Part shown: piece by piece, positions 1-37,243 of the stretch
Numbering within the stretch: position 1 is the stretch's first letter
Layout of the letters: each line of letters opens with the position of its first letter
Virus genome (UHGV): UHGV-1372004
Length of the DNA: 37,243 bases
Strand: one strand, 5' to 3'
Source: a virus
The notes under the pieces: generated by a model
The model's input: the letters and a program-made list of their open reading frames with translations, nothing else
What the model was told of the DNA's origin: nothing
The model's database searches: none
Position numbers and translations under genes: made by a program

Positions 1-260
1 ACTAATGTTTCTCTCCTAACCTACACCTGAGAGTGGCGCACGTCTGCGCTAGTATTTTATGCCTTCTAACTGCTAGTAGCATCCCGACTAGTCAGCCAAT
101 TCATCGGCATCCGATAAGACGAATTGTTTCCGTAGGTTCCTTAAGTCACTGGCAATGAATCGAACATTGCATGGTCAAATCATAAAACGTTAAGGCTATC
201 CCTCGACGTATTGACCTTATTTTTAAGCGTCTACCTTTCCGCCACAGTGACAAATTAATA

Positions 261-288
261 TTGTGAAAATAAATACTAAGCGTATAAT
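261..288 (+). promoter_or_regulatory. sigma70-like promoter (TTGTGA-16nt-TATAAT) upstream of the yegP-like gene
   Basis: TTGTGA at 261-266 and TATAAT at 283-288 with a 16-nt spacer; RBS AAGGTGGTG follows at ~317-325. Confidence 0.4.
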
Positions 289-328: not shown

Positions 329-520
329 GTGGTGAAAAATTTGTACTTTGTTATAAGAGAAGCAACTAATGGCCAATATTACTTCGTTATTAAGTCCAAT
401 AACAATGAAGTAGTAGCAACTAGCGAAACATACTTGACTAAATATTCCGCTGAACAAACCATTAATTCTATAAAAAACGGAATCACCAAAGACTCTCAAG
501 TTATCGATATGACTAAATAA
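329..520 (+). CDS. YegP/DUF1508-family small protein; opposite strand to the flanking phage genes, so moron-like
   Basis: 63 aa; YFVIREATNGQYYFVIKSNNNEVVATSETY...INSIKNG fits the YegP repeat pattern (G.Y.F.L.A.NGE.I..SE.Y....A..GI.SVK.N); own promoter and RBS. Confidence 0.55.
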   Translation: MVKNLYFVIREATNGQYYFVIKSNNNEVVATSETYLTKYSAEQTINSIKNGITKDSQVIDMTK

Positions 521-926: not shown

Positions 927-1181
927 TCGTTTTCCCTCCAATACATAAATTAATAGACAGCAATGGATGATAGATAATAAGAACAATTTAGAAGGAGTTG
1001 AAATTCACATCCTTATTCTTAATATTTCCGTTGCTGTCTATCGAAGCTTAATTAAACGATGAGGGAGATTTCCTCCCTTACATTTTATTTTGTCGATCCT
1101 GTTTCCTAATCTTTCGACACTATCATAATATCACTGGTAAACGGCTAAAAACCGCCATCATTCCGCCAAAAAACCGCCAAA

Positions 1182-3037: not shown

Positions 3038-3351
3038 AAATTTGGAAAATCATCGGCATATATCTCTATTGCGCCAAACAGCTTAATTGCTGATTCTGAA
3101 TTCCCATACATATCAGGACTGATTAAACGATCATAATAATCCTGACTGATTGTTTTTCCCTTGTACTGATAACGTGTAGCCGCAGTGTAATATACTGCTG
3201 TCTTGCTCAGATAAAGATATTTTGCTAAATCAGCCGATATCCGTAACAAAATGATTCTATTCTTGCTTTTAATTCCACAATTTAGCAATGCTGGGACATT
3301 CCCATTTTCATCTTTTAAAGAATCGATGTAGTCAGTAGCTAAGATAATCAC
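3013..3351 (-). CDS. hypothetical early phage protein
   Basis: 112 aa ORF; ATGA-type overlap with the YopX gene. Confidence 0.45.
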   Translation of the reverse strand: MIILATDYIDSLKDENGNVPALLNCGIKSKNRIILLRISADLAKYLYLSKTAVYYTAATRYQYKGKTISQDYYDRLISPDMYGNSESAIKLFGAIEIYADDFPNLWLKEEAE

Positions 3352-11024: not shown

Positions 11025-11035
11025 GGGTAATATTG

Positions 11036-12184
11036 ATGGCAATGATAAAACAATATAAAAAGAAAAATGGCGAAAAAGCATGGTACTTTAAAACTTATCT
11101 CGGTATTGATCCGCTAACAGGAAAGAAAAAATATACTACTAAAAGAGGATTTAGAACACAAAAAGAAGCAAAAACAGCACTTTCTAGGTTAGAACTAGAA
11201 TTACAAAAAACAGGAATGCCCACAAGTACAAATACTACTTTCAAAGAAGCAGCAGAATTATGGCTAGAAAGCTATAAAAAAACTGTAAAAGAAAGTTCAT
11301 ATTCAAGGACTAAAATAATCTTTAACAAACATATATATCCTAAATTTGGAAATATTAAGCTTTCTAAAATTAATACGGCATATTGTCAAAAGGTAGTAAA
11401 TGATTGGAGTGAAAAAGGAACTTCAAAGCAGTACCCTCTTTTCATAAACTATATGAACAAAGTTTTTAAGTATGCTATAAATATTGGTTTAACATCTGAT
11501 AATCCAACATTAAATTTACTTATTCCAAAGCCACAAATTAAAACAGAAAAGAAATTAAAATTATATACAAAAGAACAGTTGGAATTATTTCTAAATGAAG
11601 TATCTCAAGAACAGAATCCATATTTTAAAAACAGAGACTATACGCTCTTTAGACTATTAGCATTCAGCGGATGTAGAATCGGCGAAATATTAGCACTCAC
11701 TTGGGACAATATTAATTTTAAAACAAATGAAATGGCCATTAAAAAAACTGTAGCTCGTTCAGATAAATATTATATATCTGAAACTCCTAAAACCAAAAAA
11801 TCAAATCGAATAATTTATTTAGATGAGAAAACTATAAAGCAATTAAAATTTTGGAAGCTTGAACAAAGAAAGTACTTATTTCAATTAGGATTTACCAAAG
11901 CTAATTATTTGTTCACCAATGACGAAAATAATTTCACAATTAATCAGGCAGTAGCAGAAAGATACAATGTATATCGTGAGCGTGCCGGCTTACCTTATAT
12001 CGGTCTGCATGGTTTTAGACATACACATGCATCAATGTTATATGAGGCAGGCGCAGATCACAAAGAAGTCCAAGAAAGAATGGGCCACGCAAATATAAAA
12101 ACTACTATGGACACATATACACACATTACTAACAGCAAAAAAGAAGAAACAACACAAAAACTAACAAATTATATTAACTTCTAA
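11036..12184 (+). CDS. int: tyrosine site-specific integrase
   Basis: C-terminal catalytic region LHGFRHTHASMLYEAGADHKEVQERMGHANIKTTMDTYTHI; N-terminal SAM-like domain; followed by arm-type repeats. Confidence 0.9.
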   Translation: MAMIKQYKKKNGEKAWYFKTYLGIDPLTGKKKYTTKRGFRTQKEAKTALSRLELELQKTGMPTSTNTTFKEAAELWLESYKKTVKESSYSRTKIIFNKHIYPKFGNIKLSKINTAYCQKVVNDWSEKGTSKQYPLFINYMNKVFKYAINIGLTSDNPTLNLLIPKPQIKTEKKLKLYTKEQLELFLNEVSQEQNPYFKNRDYTLFRLLAFSGCRIGEILALTWDNINFKTNEMAIKKTVARSDKYYISETPKTKKSNRIIYLDEKTIKQLKFWKLEQRKYLFQLGFTKANYLFTNDENNFTINQAVAERYNVYRERAGLPYIGLHGFRHTHASMLYEAGADHKEVQERMGHANIKTTMDTYTHITNSKKEETTQKLTNYINF

Positions 12185-14083: not shown

Positions 14084-14157
14084 TGTACCCTGTAGGACTC
14101 GAACCTACGACCGGACGGTTATGAGCCGTCTGCTCTAACCAACTGAGCTAAGGGTAC
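14084..14157 (-). tRNA. tRNA with anticodon CAT (elongator tRNA-Met, or tRNA-Ile2 if lysidinylated); no CCA encoded
   Basis: manual fold of the reverse complement: 7-bp acceptor stem GTACCCT/AGGGTAC, D-arm AGCTCAGTTGGTTAGAGC, anticodon stem GACGG/CCGTC with loop CTCATAA, T-arm GGTTCGAGTCC, discriminator A; G1–C72 pair so not an initiator. Confidence 0.85.
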
Positions 14158-34798: not shown

Positions 34799-36106
34799 TT
34801 AAAACATTCTTCTGATTTTGTTCCGCTGCTCTTTAGTAACGGTTGATTTCTTTTTGGCCCACATGTCTTCGTTGAAGGCGTATCTTGTCGCATCAATCGT
34901 ATGGTTATCTTTATCCTCTAACCTTGGCTTAGGATTTCCATCACGATCTGTTTGATAGTCGATGTTCTCGAATTCCTTAGCAATATTCGGAGTGCGTAGT
35001 GGATCAATACAAATAAAAGCCAAATCATCTAGCCACTGTTCACCGTACTCAACAGAATCAGGTCCTTTTTTCACGCCTTTTATTCCTTTCATGCCATGTT
35101 CATTAACTAATTCAGCATTACTCTTTGGCTCTGCGCTATCTGAAAATATCTCCTCATTTTGGTAACCTTTAGATTTAGCTTTGTTTGCAAATTCTCTATT
35201 GCTGATCTTCACGCCGTAAATTTCATCGATTGCATAAATACCGTTTTTCTTTTTGTCATAATGCCATCTGACGAACGCTAAAGGATCCGTTGCATATCCA
35301 TAGTCCAAACCGTTGCGGATGTTATCAAAGTTAGAGATCATTTCATCTGTAATAGAACCTTTCTTAACTTGTAGATTATCAAAAGGTACAACTCCTGACC
35401 CCACAGCTTTACCATCATATTCCCACTCAGCCCTTCTTGGATTCCTTGCTCTAGTTGCCTCAACTTCTTTCAGAAATTCCTTAGAGATGAATGGATTATC
35501 CCGATAGGTCGAGTGATGAATAAAAGTGTTGTCTGGTTGAAAAGAAGTCTCATATTTTTTATTTACCCAAGATTGTTTTCTCTTAGGTGGATTGTAGCTG
35601 TAAAAAAACTTATAAAAAAGACCATCATCTAATTCTCCACGTAAAAGGGAGTTCGTGATAGTCGTGACTTCATCTTCTGTTTTAAATTCTGCTAATTCTT
35701 CAATCCAACCTATAGCAAATGGAAACTTGCTATCTTTTAAAGACTTGATTCGTTCTGGGTTTTGAGCACCACGAAATATCATATAATTCCCTCTTGGAAG
35801 ATAAGTAATTTTAAGTGGTGACTTATTAAACTTAAATAGGCGCGATACTCCCTGCTTCTCAATTGCCCATTTCATTTGTTCGTAAATAGATTGCTCAAGT
35901 GTATTATCAACATAACGTATACCTACAGCATTCACTGCATATCTCATAAGTAACTGAGTAACGATATGCGCTATATCTGATGATTTTCCTGAACCCCGGC
36001 CACCTTTACAAACTATATTAAGAATATCTTGATTTAAAGTTGCTCTCCATACTGAATGAAACTTCGGCGGAAGAAATTCAGATAGTTTTTTAGCCATCAT
36101 CATCAC
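34799..36106 (-). CDS. terL: terminase large subunit (Terminase_3 / XtmB-PBSX-like, headful type)
   Basis: Walker A GGRGSGKS near the N-terminus; C-terminal nuclease Asp motifs; overlaps the TerS 3' end. Confidence 0.9.
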   Translation of the reverse strand: MMMMAKKLSEFLPPKFHSVWRATLNQDILNIVCKGGRGSGKSSDIAHIVTQLLMRYAVNAVGIRYVDNTLEQSIYEQMKWAIEKQGVSRLFKFNKSPLKITYLPRGNYMIFRGAQNPERIKSLKDSKFPFAIGWIEELAEFKTEDEVTTITNSLLRGELDDGLFYKFFYSYNPPKRKQSWVNKKYETSFQPDNTFIHHSTYRDNPFISKEFLKEVEATRARNPRRAEWEYDGKAVGSGVVPFDNLQVKKGSITDEMISNFDNIRNGLDYGYATDPLAFVRWHYDKKKNGIYAIDEIYGVKISNREFANKAKSKGYQNEEIFSDSAEPKSNAELVNEHGMKGIKGVKKGPDSVEYGEQWLDDLAFICIDPLRTPNIAKEFENIDYQTDRDGNPKPRLEDKDNHTIDATRYAFNEDMWAKKKSTVTKEQRNKIRRMF

Positions 36107-36545
36107 TACTTATATCATCAATGAAAGTAGGTATTTCAGAAATTTCAACTTTCTGCTTATCTACAAATGCTGCGTTTATTTTATAATAGTGCTCAAGTGC
36201 TTGGTTACGTTCTTTGAAACCTGCTGAATATTCACTCACTTCACGTTCTATGATTTCGTTTGTATAAGGATCTCTCTTAACAACTTCAAAGCGTTGTGGT
36301 TCTCCTTTTGCAATAGAAGCAGTAATAGCCAAAGCTTCTTCCATTGTTAAATGCCTCTTAGTTTGAACTTCTTTTAGCTTCTCTTGAATGTAGTCGGATA
36401 CTTTTCCACCTTTTTCCACCAATTTTTCTTGTGCGTTCTTAGCGTAGTTTTCTTTATAGCCAGCTTTCAGTGCTGACTGATAAGCATTGCCTGTGATGAT
36501 GTACTCATCAGCAAAGGCTTGTTGCTTAGGATTCAACTTACTCAT
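36090..36545 (-). CDS. terS: terminase small subunit (P27/Terminase_2 family)
   Basis: MSKLNPKQQAFADEYIITGNAYQSALKAGY is the canonical N-terminal HTH of this family. Confidence 0.8.
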   Translation of the reverse strand: MSKLNPKQQAFADEYIITGNAYQSALKAGYKENYAKNAQEKLVEKGGKVSDYIQEKLKEVQTKRHLTMEEALAITASIAKGEPQRFEVVKRDPYTNEIIEREVSEYSAGFKERNQALEHYYKINAAFVDKQKVEISEIPTFIDDISSDDDG

Positions 36546-36570: not shown

Positions 36571-36795
36571 TTAATGATATTTTTTTATATTTGTCTGTAT
36601 GTTCTGCTCACTAAAATATCCATGGCCACAGTAACGAAGATTGTACTTATCGATCTCATTTGGTGTAGCTTCTCTGGTCATTTCAATGATGGAGTATTTC
36701 TTTTTGATTTGGACTGACTGAACTGAACGAACCGAATCTTGTTCGCTTGATTGCGGATATCTATTTGATAGTGATATATACCAGTAGTTTCTCAT
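36571..36795 (-). CDS. hypothetical small protein upstream of terS
   Basis: 74 aa ORF. Confidence 0.4.
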   Translation of the reverse strand: MRNYWYISLSNRYPQSSEQDSVRSVQSVQIKKKYSIIEMTREATPNEIDKYNLRYCGHGYFSEQNIQTNIKKYH

Positions 36796-36801
36796 TATGT
36801 A

Positions 36802-37014
36802 TCACTCTTTCTGTTGGTTGTTGGCAGAAAAGGTTCGCATCATAAATTCCATAGCCTGTGCGTCATTAAATCCTTGCAGAATAAGCTGATCGTAGAAATA
36901 CTTAGCTTGTTTTGCGATTAACGCTAAGCTTTTTTGAGTTTCATAGAATGTCGCCTCCATTGTTTTGTTTGCTTCATTTGTTTTAAACAACTCTCTTAAT
37001 TGGTTTTCGTTCAT
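36802..37014 (-). CDS. hypothetical small protein, first ORF of the late transcript
   Basis: 70 aa; RBS GAAAGGGGAG; preceded by an intrinsic terminator. Confidence 0.45.
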   Translation of the reverse strand: MNENQLRELFKTNEANKTMEATFYETQKSLALIAKQAKYFYDQLILQGFNDAQAMEFMMRTFSANNQQKE

Positions 37015-37030
37015 TTGTTTACTCCCCTTT

Positions 37031-37060
37031 CAAAATAAAAAGACCACTCAAAGAGTGATC
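37031..37060 (-). terminator. intrinsic terminator on the minus strand, about 15 nt upstream of the first late-operon RBS
   Basis: on the minus strand GATCACTC-ttt-GAGTGGTC followed by TTTTTATTTTG. Confidence 0.5.
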
Positions 37061-37243
37061 TAATATGTAATAGCAACCTACACACAGGCGGTTATCCTGT
37101 TCCTCCCTAGGGCTCGCACCACACGAGTTCATACCACCCTCGGTTGCTAACGAATACTGAAACAGAATACCGTCTCTGTTCATGACCAACGCGACAGTAC
37201 AAAGCTTTGTCGCAAGCAGGTTATCGTATTCCTAATAACCCCA

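Follow-up and report, generated by a model that had tools for sequence, protein, structure and literature searches.

What is the non-coding stretch that stands directly before the late genes in the virus genome UHGV-1372004: an RNA with a function of its own, or a control region for the genes behind it? The window (the whole 37,243-nt stretch of DNA that was analyzed) is the circularly permuted genome of a temperate siphophage. A first, sequence-only reading had flagged positions 37031-37243 as a GC-richer segment ending in a terminator, to be joined to the other end of the window and understood either as a large structured non-coding RNA (ncRNA), possibly of the ROOL or GOLLD class, or as a leader through which ArpU-dependent late transcription must read. 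Comparison with related phages leads us to prefer, with slightly better than even confidence, an RNA island: a series of co-transcribed, tRNA-punctuated modules of structured RNA, in which the conserved core is a functional RNA in its own right.

The whole element, of about 465 nt, runs on the minus strand from window position 251 across the circular junction to 37032. The flagged coordinates hold its variable 3' half only, namely modules C and D and the terminator; the conserved core, at 5-144, lies outside them. Joining the two ends is legitimate because the junction sequence (...GAGAGAAACATTAGT followed by TGGGGTTATTAGG...) is contiguous in many independent contigs. The joined non-coding gap measures 489 nt (37015-37243 plus 1-260) and not the roughly 550 nt first proposed. 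The enrichment in GC is real (0.44 in 37000-37199 against 0.34-0.38 in the flanks), and the joined gap stands at 0.438 against 0.365 for the genome, which places it only within the top 5.6% of equal-sized windows. Read 5' to 3', the parts are as follows; relatives are cited below by our handles (L001 and so on).

145-251, minus strand: tRNA-like head with a variable central arm.
5-144, minus strand: core B, the universally conserved part.
37242-37160, minus strand (entry 37149-37243, continuing from window 4-1): module C, three hairpins, optional.
37072-37148, minus strand: module D, a stem AGCAACC/GGUUGCU around a hypervariable insert.
Absent in the window: module F, optional, flanked by UACAUA repeats in relatives.
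37062-37071, minus strand: conserved UACAUA box just 5' of the terminator, duplicated in relatives around module F.
37032-37061, minus strand: intrinsic terminator, AGAUCACUC-UUU-GAGUGGUCU then UUUUUAUUUU, the boundary module of a late-leader cargo slot.
37012-37030, minus strand: ribosome-binding site (RBS; GGGGAG) and start codon (ATG) of 36802-37014 (phrog_8955), the gene that comes next after the terminator.

The element has a sharp 5' boundary at TGTCACTG, which is the same in six or more contexts whose upstream sequences are unrelated, and the terminator forms its 3' boundary. Within these bounds its modules are shuffled among phages: module C is missing from the copies in lytic phages of the genus Schiekvirus and from L004-type copies, and the insert of module D exists in at least seven unrelated versions among relatives.

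The case for an RNA comes from the way in which the helices of the element change between relatives, compared over about 60 copies that all come from Enterococcus phages, prophages or metagenome contigs. We aligned 24 distinct core B sequences with MAFFT for folding with RNAalifold, and built a covariance model, R1, from the same alignment; R1 matches window 5-144 over its full length with 178 bits. RNAalifold predicts the core helices, with compensatory changes in P2 and P4. The helices of core B and of module C are placed thus.

126-97, minus strand: core B helix P2.
96-69, minus strand: core B helices P3/P3a.
49-36, minus strand: core B helix P4, with a GACG loop.
33-11, minus strand: core B helix P5.
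37242-37218, minus strand: module C hairpin C1, loop UAGGAAUACG.
37217-37204, minus strand: module C hairpin C2.
37181-37160, minus strand: module C hairpin C3, loop GACGGUAU.

When core B is aligned jointly with B', a diverged paralog from lytic phages that is described below, 94.1% of 1052 cells are paired against 30-42% with slid partners, the first figure being somewhat inflated since this joint alignment was fitted to the model. In the same comparison 18 of 36 pairs are changed on both sides, a value reached by none of 500 shuffles. Module C, in a MAFFT alignment blind to structure, has 19 pairs that are 100% paired, with eight showing compensatory changes against 0-1 in slid controls, and the stem of module D is compensated in EH-TP1 (GCAAUC/GAUUGC). 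Core B is 84-100% identical between temperate and lytic phages with its loop sequences conserved, and a 463-nt transcript of the whole element has a folding z of -3.2. A pseudoknot is plausible from sequence complementarity between the P5 loop (GUAGGUU) and 138-131 (AACCUACG), with 8-9 bp in B, which 1-3% of loop shuffles reach. Compensatory helices in independent lineages, together with G·U pairing that is specific to one strand, are what characterizes structured ncRNAs in general. The covariation check across relatives thus came out in favor of the first reading's large structured ncRNA: the element is conserved in related phages, and its kind was recognized correctly, with covarying helices both in the flagged segment and in the adjoining core, but the families named for it are excluded.

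The pairing also tells the strand. G·U pairs occupy 80 cells and A·C pairs 5, so that the functional RNA is the minus strand of the window, and this speaks against an element that acts as DNA. Such a site upstream of the terminase genes, whether cos or pac, an origin or a recombination hotspot, would suit the position ahead of terS and terL, the mosaic modules, and the several contigs, the window included, that break inside the core or at its edge. We nevertheless consider it very improbable: besides the asymmetric pairing, a tRNA-like cloverleaf and an intrinsic terminator are present, the orientation always follows local transcription, the element occurs in tRNA arrays of Herelleviridae at 4-5 kb from a divergently oriented terminase gene, and the contig breaks are scattered over different positions, the pattern that a multi-copy repeat would leave by disrupting assemblies.

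How widely is this RNA distributed, and does it occur away from late genes? Exact-word scans find the element in about 45 IMG/VR contigs and 22 metagenome contigs. Among GTDB representatives, a pattern specific for core B finds prophages in three Enterococcus species only, and a degenerate B/B' pattern run on IMG/VR and the metagenomes yields no family beyond the same Enterococcus-phage one. The family is therefore confined so far to Enterococcus phages, prophages and metagenome contigs. The remaining pattern matches (five in IMG/VR, four in GTDB) are unlike the core and were set aside as apparent chance matches. The window and L014, L015, L032, L041 and L043 start or stop within the conserved core or at its edge, at differing positions; these ends are likely assembly breaks at a sequence common to several prophages of one genome.

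In phage genomes, BLAST places window 2-152 at 84% identity on DNA that bears no annotation; the seven records concerned come from six lytic Schiekvirus phages with genomes of 150 kb. In one of these phages, phiSHEF16, the homologous element is part of a tRNA array, with tRNA-Met on one side and a true ROOL RNA on the other, and patchy colinear homology to the window extends over the whole gap including the terminator. In this array model R1 finds just two copies, and the second is the paralog B'.

L001 2551-2674 (minus strand), the same as L063 17119-17242 (plus strand): diverged 124-nt core paralog B', filling the gap between tRNA-Met and tRNA-Asp exactly.
L064-L067, about 2520-2645: B' in the same gap.

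B' sits in the tRNA-Met/tRNA-Asp gap in 28 of the 28 Schiekvirus records matched by BLAST. In none is it annotated as RNA, and in one a 'hypothetical protein' is drawn over it. All of P2, P3, P3a, P4 and P5 are kept in it by different sequences, P4 with an unchanged GACG loop. A further lytic copy, L025, is followed by additional terminator-like hairpins and then by a TG-extended promoter (TTGACT-17-TACTAT), an arrangement that makes the element act there as a discrete gene. On either side of the main copy in phiSHEF16, about 45 nt from the ROOL 3' end stand as a direct repeat (GCAGGAAGAAAAGCCYTTAATCTATTAAGTTTTGAGTTTTTAA; L001 about 2750-2800 and about 3260-3300), and EFDG1 has no insertion of the phiSHEF16 type; in sequence terms this is the signature of recent insertion or recombination. 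The phiSHEF16 tRNA array (L063 14800-25000) also has many unannotated inter-tRNA gaps of 100-240 nt, and one of 820 nt after tRNA-Leu, which R1 does not match; they may hold further structured RNAs.

The 5' part of the element has the shape of a tRNA. The head consists of a 7-bp acceptor stem (GUCACUG/CAGUGAC), U8, A14, a D-arm (GCGG/CGCU) with a GG loop and a 6-bp T-arm, whose loop is UUCGAUU in temperate copies. A cloverleaf with acceptor stem, D-arm and T-arm is the minimum-energy fold in six variants, and the T-stem covaries (GCAAUG/CAUUGC, GCAAGG/CCUUGC, GAGUGG/CCACUC). The folds and these positions identify the head as a tRNA-like structure, a class defined by a stack of acceptor and T-arm, an elbow of D-loop GG and T-loop UUCRA, and an unpaired discriminator. 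As a true tRNA the head was rejected, given that ARAGORN and the Rfam tRNA model are silent on it, the 77-nt L021 head goes unscored at E<=10, and its putative loop AAAAUUU lacks U33; the central arm ranges from 25 to about 80 nt, and its anticodon-like loop, where present, is non-canonical. In L004, L027 and L045 a real tRNA-Lys(UUU) replaces the head directly before core B, and in EH-TP1 core B is missing from the corresponding slot, where the head is joined by a true tRNA-Lys and by module D. The head is presumed to serve as punctuation for RNase P and RNase Z. In L056 and L061, two tandem tRNA-like units stand 5' of core B, and the conserved spacer between them contains a GGAGGUAGCUCCUCC hairpin.

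From these observations we propose a model in which the island would be transcribed with the late operon or, in lytic phages, with the tRNA operon. RNase P and RNase Z would cut at the tRNA-like head or at the real tRNA and so free a stable RNA, reaching from about window 143 to the terminator near 37033. The freed RNA would work in trans late in infection, a mode of action also assumed for ROOL, GOLLD and the small RNAs from the tRNA cluster of phage T4; the late genes would be reached through read-through of the boundary terminator. The T4 RNAs (species 1 and 2, rnaC/rnaD) are structured, stable RNAs of 120-140 nt whose function is unknown; they are co-transcribed with tRNAs and released by tRNA-processing enzymes. 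B', between tRNA-Met and tRNA-Asp, would be released likewise, a resemblance by description; host and sequence of the T4 RNAs are unrelated to those of the Enterococcus-phage element. A tRNA-shaped module fused to an RNA also recruits RNase P and RNase Z and defines RNA ends in MALAT1-mascRNA and in the TMERs of gammaherpesvirus 68; these systems are eukaryotic or eukaryotic-viral, whereas cleavage at the phage head is presumed from its likeness to a tRNA. A bolder reading, speculative and rather unlikely in our estimate, would make core B/B' and the companion modules an ornate phage RNA of a third, independent class tied to tRNA islands, and an autonomous machine. It could be, for example, a particle that self-assembles between molecules through AACCUAC/GUAGGUU, a ribozyme, or a factor whose target is tRNA, translation or host defense. 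Enterococcus phages would express such an RNA strongly in the late phase of infection, and its hypervariable inserts (the head arm and module D) would be under host-driven diversification.

Does the RNA belong to a family that is already known? At the gathering threshold, Rfam reports only tRNA-Met 14084-14157 in the whole window, and ARAGORN likewise. At E<=10, neither window end nor the intact copy in L003 (4900-5800) shows ROOL, GOLLD or HEARO. In a scan of the phiSHEF16 locus at E<=1, the homologous element itself (L001) is unmatched and the true ROOL immediately 5' of it is found at 259 bits; the Rfam gathering score for ROOL (RF03087) is 99.1 bits. Because Rfam gives no matches while a scan of the same type detects this positive control, membership in ROOL, GOLLD or HEARO is excluded, and the class assignment suggested at first fails even on an intact homolog. 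For HEARO and the omega RNAs of IS605-type elements, which would have an IscB/TnpB-type ORF alongside, Rfam finds no match, and next to the element lie small late ORFs and a DUF1508-like gene. The context (phages of Lactobacillales, adjacency to tRNAs, a length of several hundred nt and many helices) does resemble that of ROOL and GOLLD, but with scans that find ROOL only beside the element, a divergent membership in either of these or in HEARO has next to no likelihood.

The likeness to these classes is one of setting. ROOL is an RNA of Lactobacillales phages and prophages, often found by tRNA islands, that has several hundred nt, many helices and pseudoknots, and an unknown function (PMC12286853). 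The element shares this context and in phiSHEF16 adjoins ROOL, on its own 5' side, in one tRNA operon; ROOL, however, is a single conserved fold of about 580 nt, whereas the element is modular, has its own tRNA-like head and terminator, and shows no similarity in sequence or model. GOLLD is borne by phages near tRNAs, sometimes with tRNAs in its linker, and combines a universal part with a variable one; its expression rises at lysis (PMC12286853). The element too is phage-borne, tRNA-adjacent and divided into conserved and variable parts, but the conserved region of GOLLD is 3' and that of the element, which is about half the size, lies in the middle, and Rfam finds no match. The element is absent from Rfam. 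We found no description of it in the literature, and the full list of a 2023 catalog of 10,006 candidate viral structured RNAs (PMC10690425) could contain it. It is best read as an uncataloged phage RNA of the tRNA-island-associated kind, unrelated to ROOL and GOLLD by homology. A search for antisense targets, by short-word BLAST of the element on the remainder of the window, returned chance 11-13-mers only.

In the temperate phages the element stands between the late promoter and the packaging genes, and here the second possibility raised at the outset has to be weighed. The surrounding features in the window are these.

1182-1703: ArpU-like gene.
1152-1180, minus strand: three direct TGGCGG repeats right after the stop codon of the ArpU-like gene, the presumed activator-binding site of the late promoter.
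1117-1132, minus strand: inferred -10 region GATATTATGATAGTGT, common to the late promoters of relatives.
951-1042, minus strand: long imperfect leader hairpin GATAGACAGCAACGG...CCATTGCTGTCTATTA, just 3' of the ArpU-type promoter.
36802-37014, minus strand: small late ORF.
36571-36795, minus strand: small late ORF.
36090-36545, minus strand: terS, late operon.
34799-36106, minus strand: terL, late operon.

In phage phiFL2A, three 7-nt repeats just distal to arpU are needed for ArpU-dependent late transcription (PMC3753634), and the layout of repeats and -10 region in the window matches this arrangement. Among the window and the relatives compared (L003, L019, L021 and L091) the repeats vary (TGGCGG, TGTAGGG, TTATACC) and the -10 region, GATATTATG(G/A)TAGTGTCGAAAG, is constant, a pattern of sequences that suggests a swapping of activator/operator specificity on a common core promoter. 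The leader hairpin is kept in all temperate relatives including vB_ElaS_B1578, and is a candidate for the cis element that takes RNA polymerase past the boundary terminator. In L003, L016, L019, L021 and L033, with ArpU-type repeats in L021 and analogous ones in the other four, the leader leads straight into the head of the RNA, and about 190 nt lie between head and promoter region. In the window, leader and head are separated by two insertions, ORF 925-513 and a DUF1508-like moron on the opposite strand. A conserved outward promoter (TTGTGA-16-TATAAT; 261-288, plus strand) with a 5'-UTR (untranslated region) hairpin TCAGCGAGTGGTCCGCTGA forms a cassette at 261-340 that abuts the 5' end of the head and drives the DUF1508-like gene (341-520, plus strand). 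The same promoter cassette recurs on the opposite strand in L012, L031, L006, L052 and L036 with different sequence beyond it, and from its sequence it looks like a cassette for swapping morons.

At the far end of the element, the minus-strand intrinsic terminator of the sequence-only reading proved sound. A hairpin containing GC, with a 9-bp stem (37061-37041), directly precedes a U-tract on the transcribed strand that runs to about 37032; three terminator-like sites are found against 0.2 expected, and relatives included, 19 versions of its sequence are known, their stems covarying and each with five or more U. It lies about 10 nt upstream of the RBS of ORF 36802-37014, a space too short for any promoter. 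In L051, L085 and L061 the terminator is absent and the RNA runs directly into the RBS of the next gene. Compared by eye, the version of module D shows no consistent pairing with the sequence 3' of the terminator. In L060 the terminator is followed at once by sequence (GTGCGCCAGGCATGG...) that is similar to a group II intron at its 5' end.

The phage vB_ElaS_B1578 (L091 1340-2790) shows what the terminator belongs to. It has the same promoter, leader, terminator, RBS and orf70, and a 313-aa coding sequence fills the slot instead of the RNA. Because the same terminator closes a protein cargo there, we regard it as the boundary module of a cargo slot in the late leader, and since it closes that slot, late transcription must pass it.

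The main rival to the RNA island, and one which concerns the terminator or the leader hairpin, is a cis-acting leader of the late operon. In it, entry of ArpU-dependent transcription into the packaging genes would be gated by the RNA, or by the terminator alone, through attenuation or put/Q-like processive antitermination. Its strength lies in the architecture just described: temperate relatives always place the element between the ArpU-type promoter and the first late RBS, the terminator abuts that RBS with no space for a promoter and guards the late genes of vB_ElaS_B1578 as well, three relatives fuse the RNA to the leader with no terminator, and a long hairpin is conserved just 3' of the promoter. 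Lambda and HK022 provide the precedent. In PR'-6S RNA-tR' with Q, and in HK022 with put, expression of the late genes requires passage from the late promoter through a leader RNA and past a terminator. The activator here is of the ArpU type, a DNA-binding activator (PMC3753634), and neither an antiterminator protein nor a put-like two-hairpin motif was identified; position is the sole argument for put-like antitermination. Unlike those leaders, the Enterococcus-phage RNA is encoded outside late operons as well. For the 5' arm of the terminator, the strongest pairing partners upstream are no better than in shuffled sequence and differ among the nine variants compared; there is thus no conserved alternative pairing of the arm. 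Module swapping changes the spacing between core and terminator by more than 100 nt, B' sits between a pair of tRNAs and has no terminator or ORF downstream, the element of L025 precedes terminators and then a fresh promoter, and in vB_ElaS_B1578 the terminator works with a protein cargo and does not need the RNA. A classical attenuator is unsupported in view of the missing antiterminator pairing, the terminator behind a protein cargo and the stand-alone core between tRNAs; what stands of the leader/attenuator proposal is the position, with ArpU-type repeats and a -10 region upstream. Taken together, a cis-acting leader is in our judgment a real but unlikely alternative.

The structures might instead serve the processing or stability of the late mRNA and have no function of their own, providing a defined, exonuclease-resistant 5' end or a separation from antisense moron RNA. 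The head in the window does follow directly on the opposite-strand moron cassette, the region is rich in stable helices, and late transcripts of related Gram-positive phages are extensively processed (PMC3753634). A device of this sort has no need, however, for a 140-nt core kept at 84-100% identity with conserved loops, nor for a paralog between two tRNAs, and in most copies the terminator separates the structures from the mRNA; we hold it to be improbable.

Several points weigh against the RNA island itself, apart from the fitting of the joint B/B' alignment mentioned above. The sequences represent only about 4-5 independent lineages. The proposed pseudoknot is invariant in B, and in B' it has 6 bp, which about 20% of loop shuffles reach. 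That the RNA ends are set by tRNA-processing enzymes is concluded only from shape and position, and the Schiekvirus heads lack a canonical T-loop. No sigma-70 promoter is found directly 5' of the head on the minus strand. In every temperate phage observed the island is directly ahead of late genes, and in the three relatives without the terminator the RNA stays fused to the mRNA leader; both fit a role in cis. The main Schiekvirus copy, with an RBS-like relic 3' of its terminator, looks from its sequence like a recent import from a temperate phage, which leaves B' alone to argue for an old, stand-alone function.

If the island is what we propose, it adds to ROOL and GOLLD, which show that phages invest in large structured RNAs beside tRNAs, a further and unrelated example. 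In practical terms it is small and modular, with a minimal core of 125-140 nt (B/B') bounded by tRNA processing sites, and it is present both in inducible Enterococcus prophages and in lytic Schiekvirus phages used in therapy. Natural variants without single modules, the terminator or the core resemble a ready-made deletion series for the function of tRNA-island RNAs. The ArpU-type late leader, in turn, emerges as a cargo slot closed by a terminator, and raises the question of how late transcription passes that terminator.

Some smaller features of the segment can be disposed of briefly. The palindromes to which the sequence-only reading drew attention are present at the following places.

37199-37210: palindrome ACAAAGCTTTGT, overlapping the 3' strand of hairpin C2 and the conserved UUUGUA.
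37105-37112: palindrome CCCTAGGG, inside the hypervariable insert of module D.
37191-96 and 37208-13: GCGACA/TGTCGC.

Their frequency is at chance level, however (for 12-nt palindromes, 0.06 expected per 213 nt and 11 genome-wide against 13 in shuffles), and they are not the covarying helices. An inverted-repeat search gave one weak inverted repeat only. The palindromes were accordingly rejected as a meaningful feature. The segment had also been called free of ORFs on either strand; it has no conserved ORF, but a mechanical 56-aa ORF starting with TTG lies at 37019-37189 (minus strand). With this sole ORF lacking a PHROG match and spanning the hypervariable insert, a protein-coding reading was discarded. 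The one tRNA of the window, tRNA-Met (CAU) at 14084-14157 (minus strand), lies among short ORFs about 1.9 kb past the end of ORF 11033-12184.

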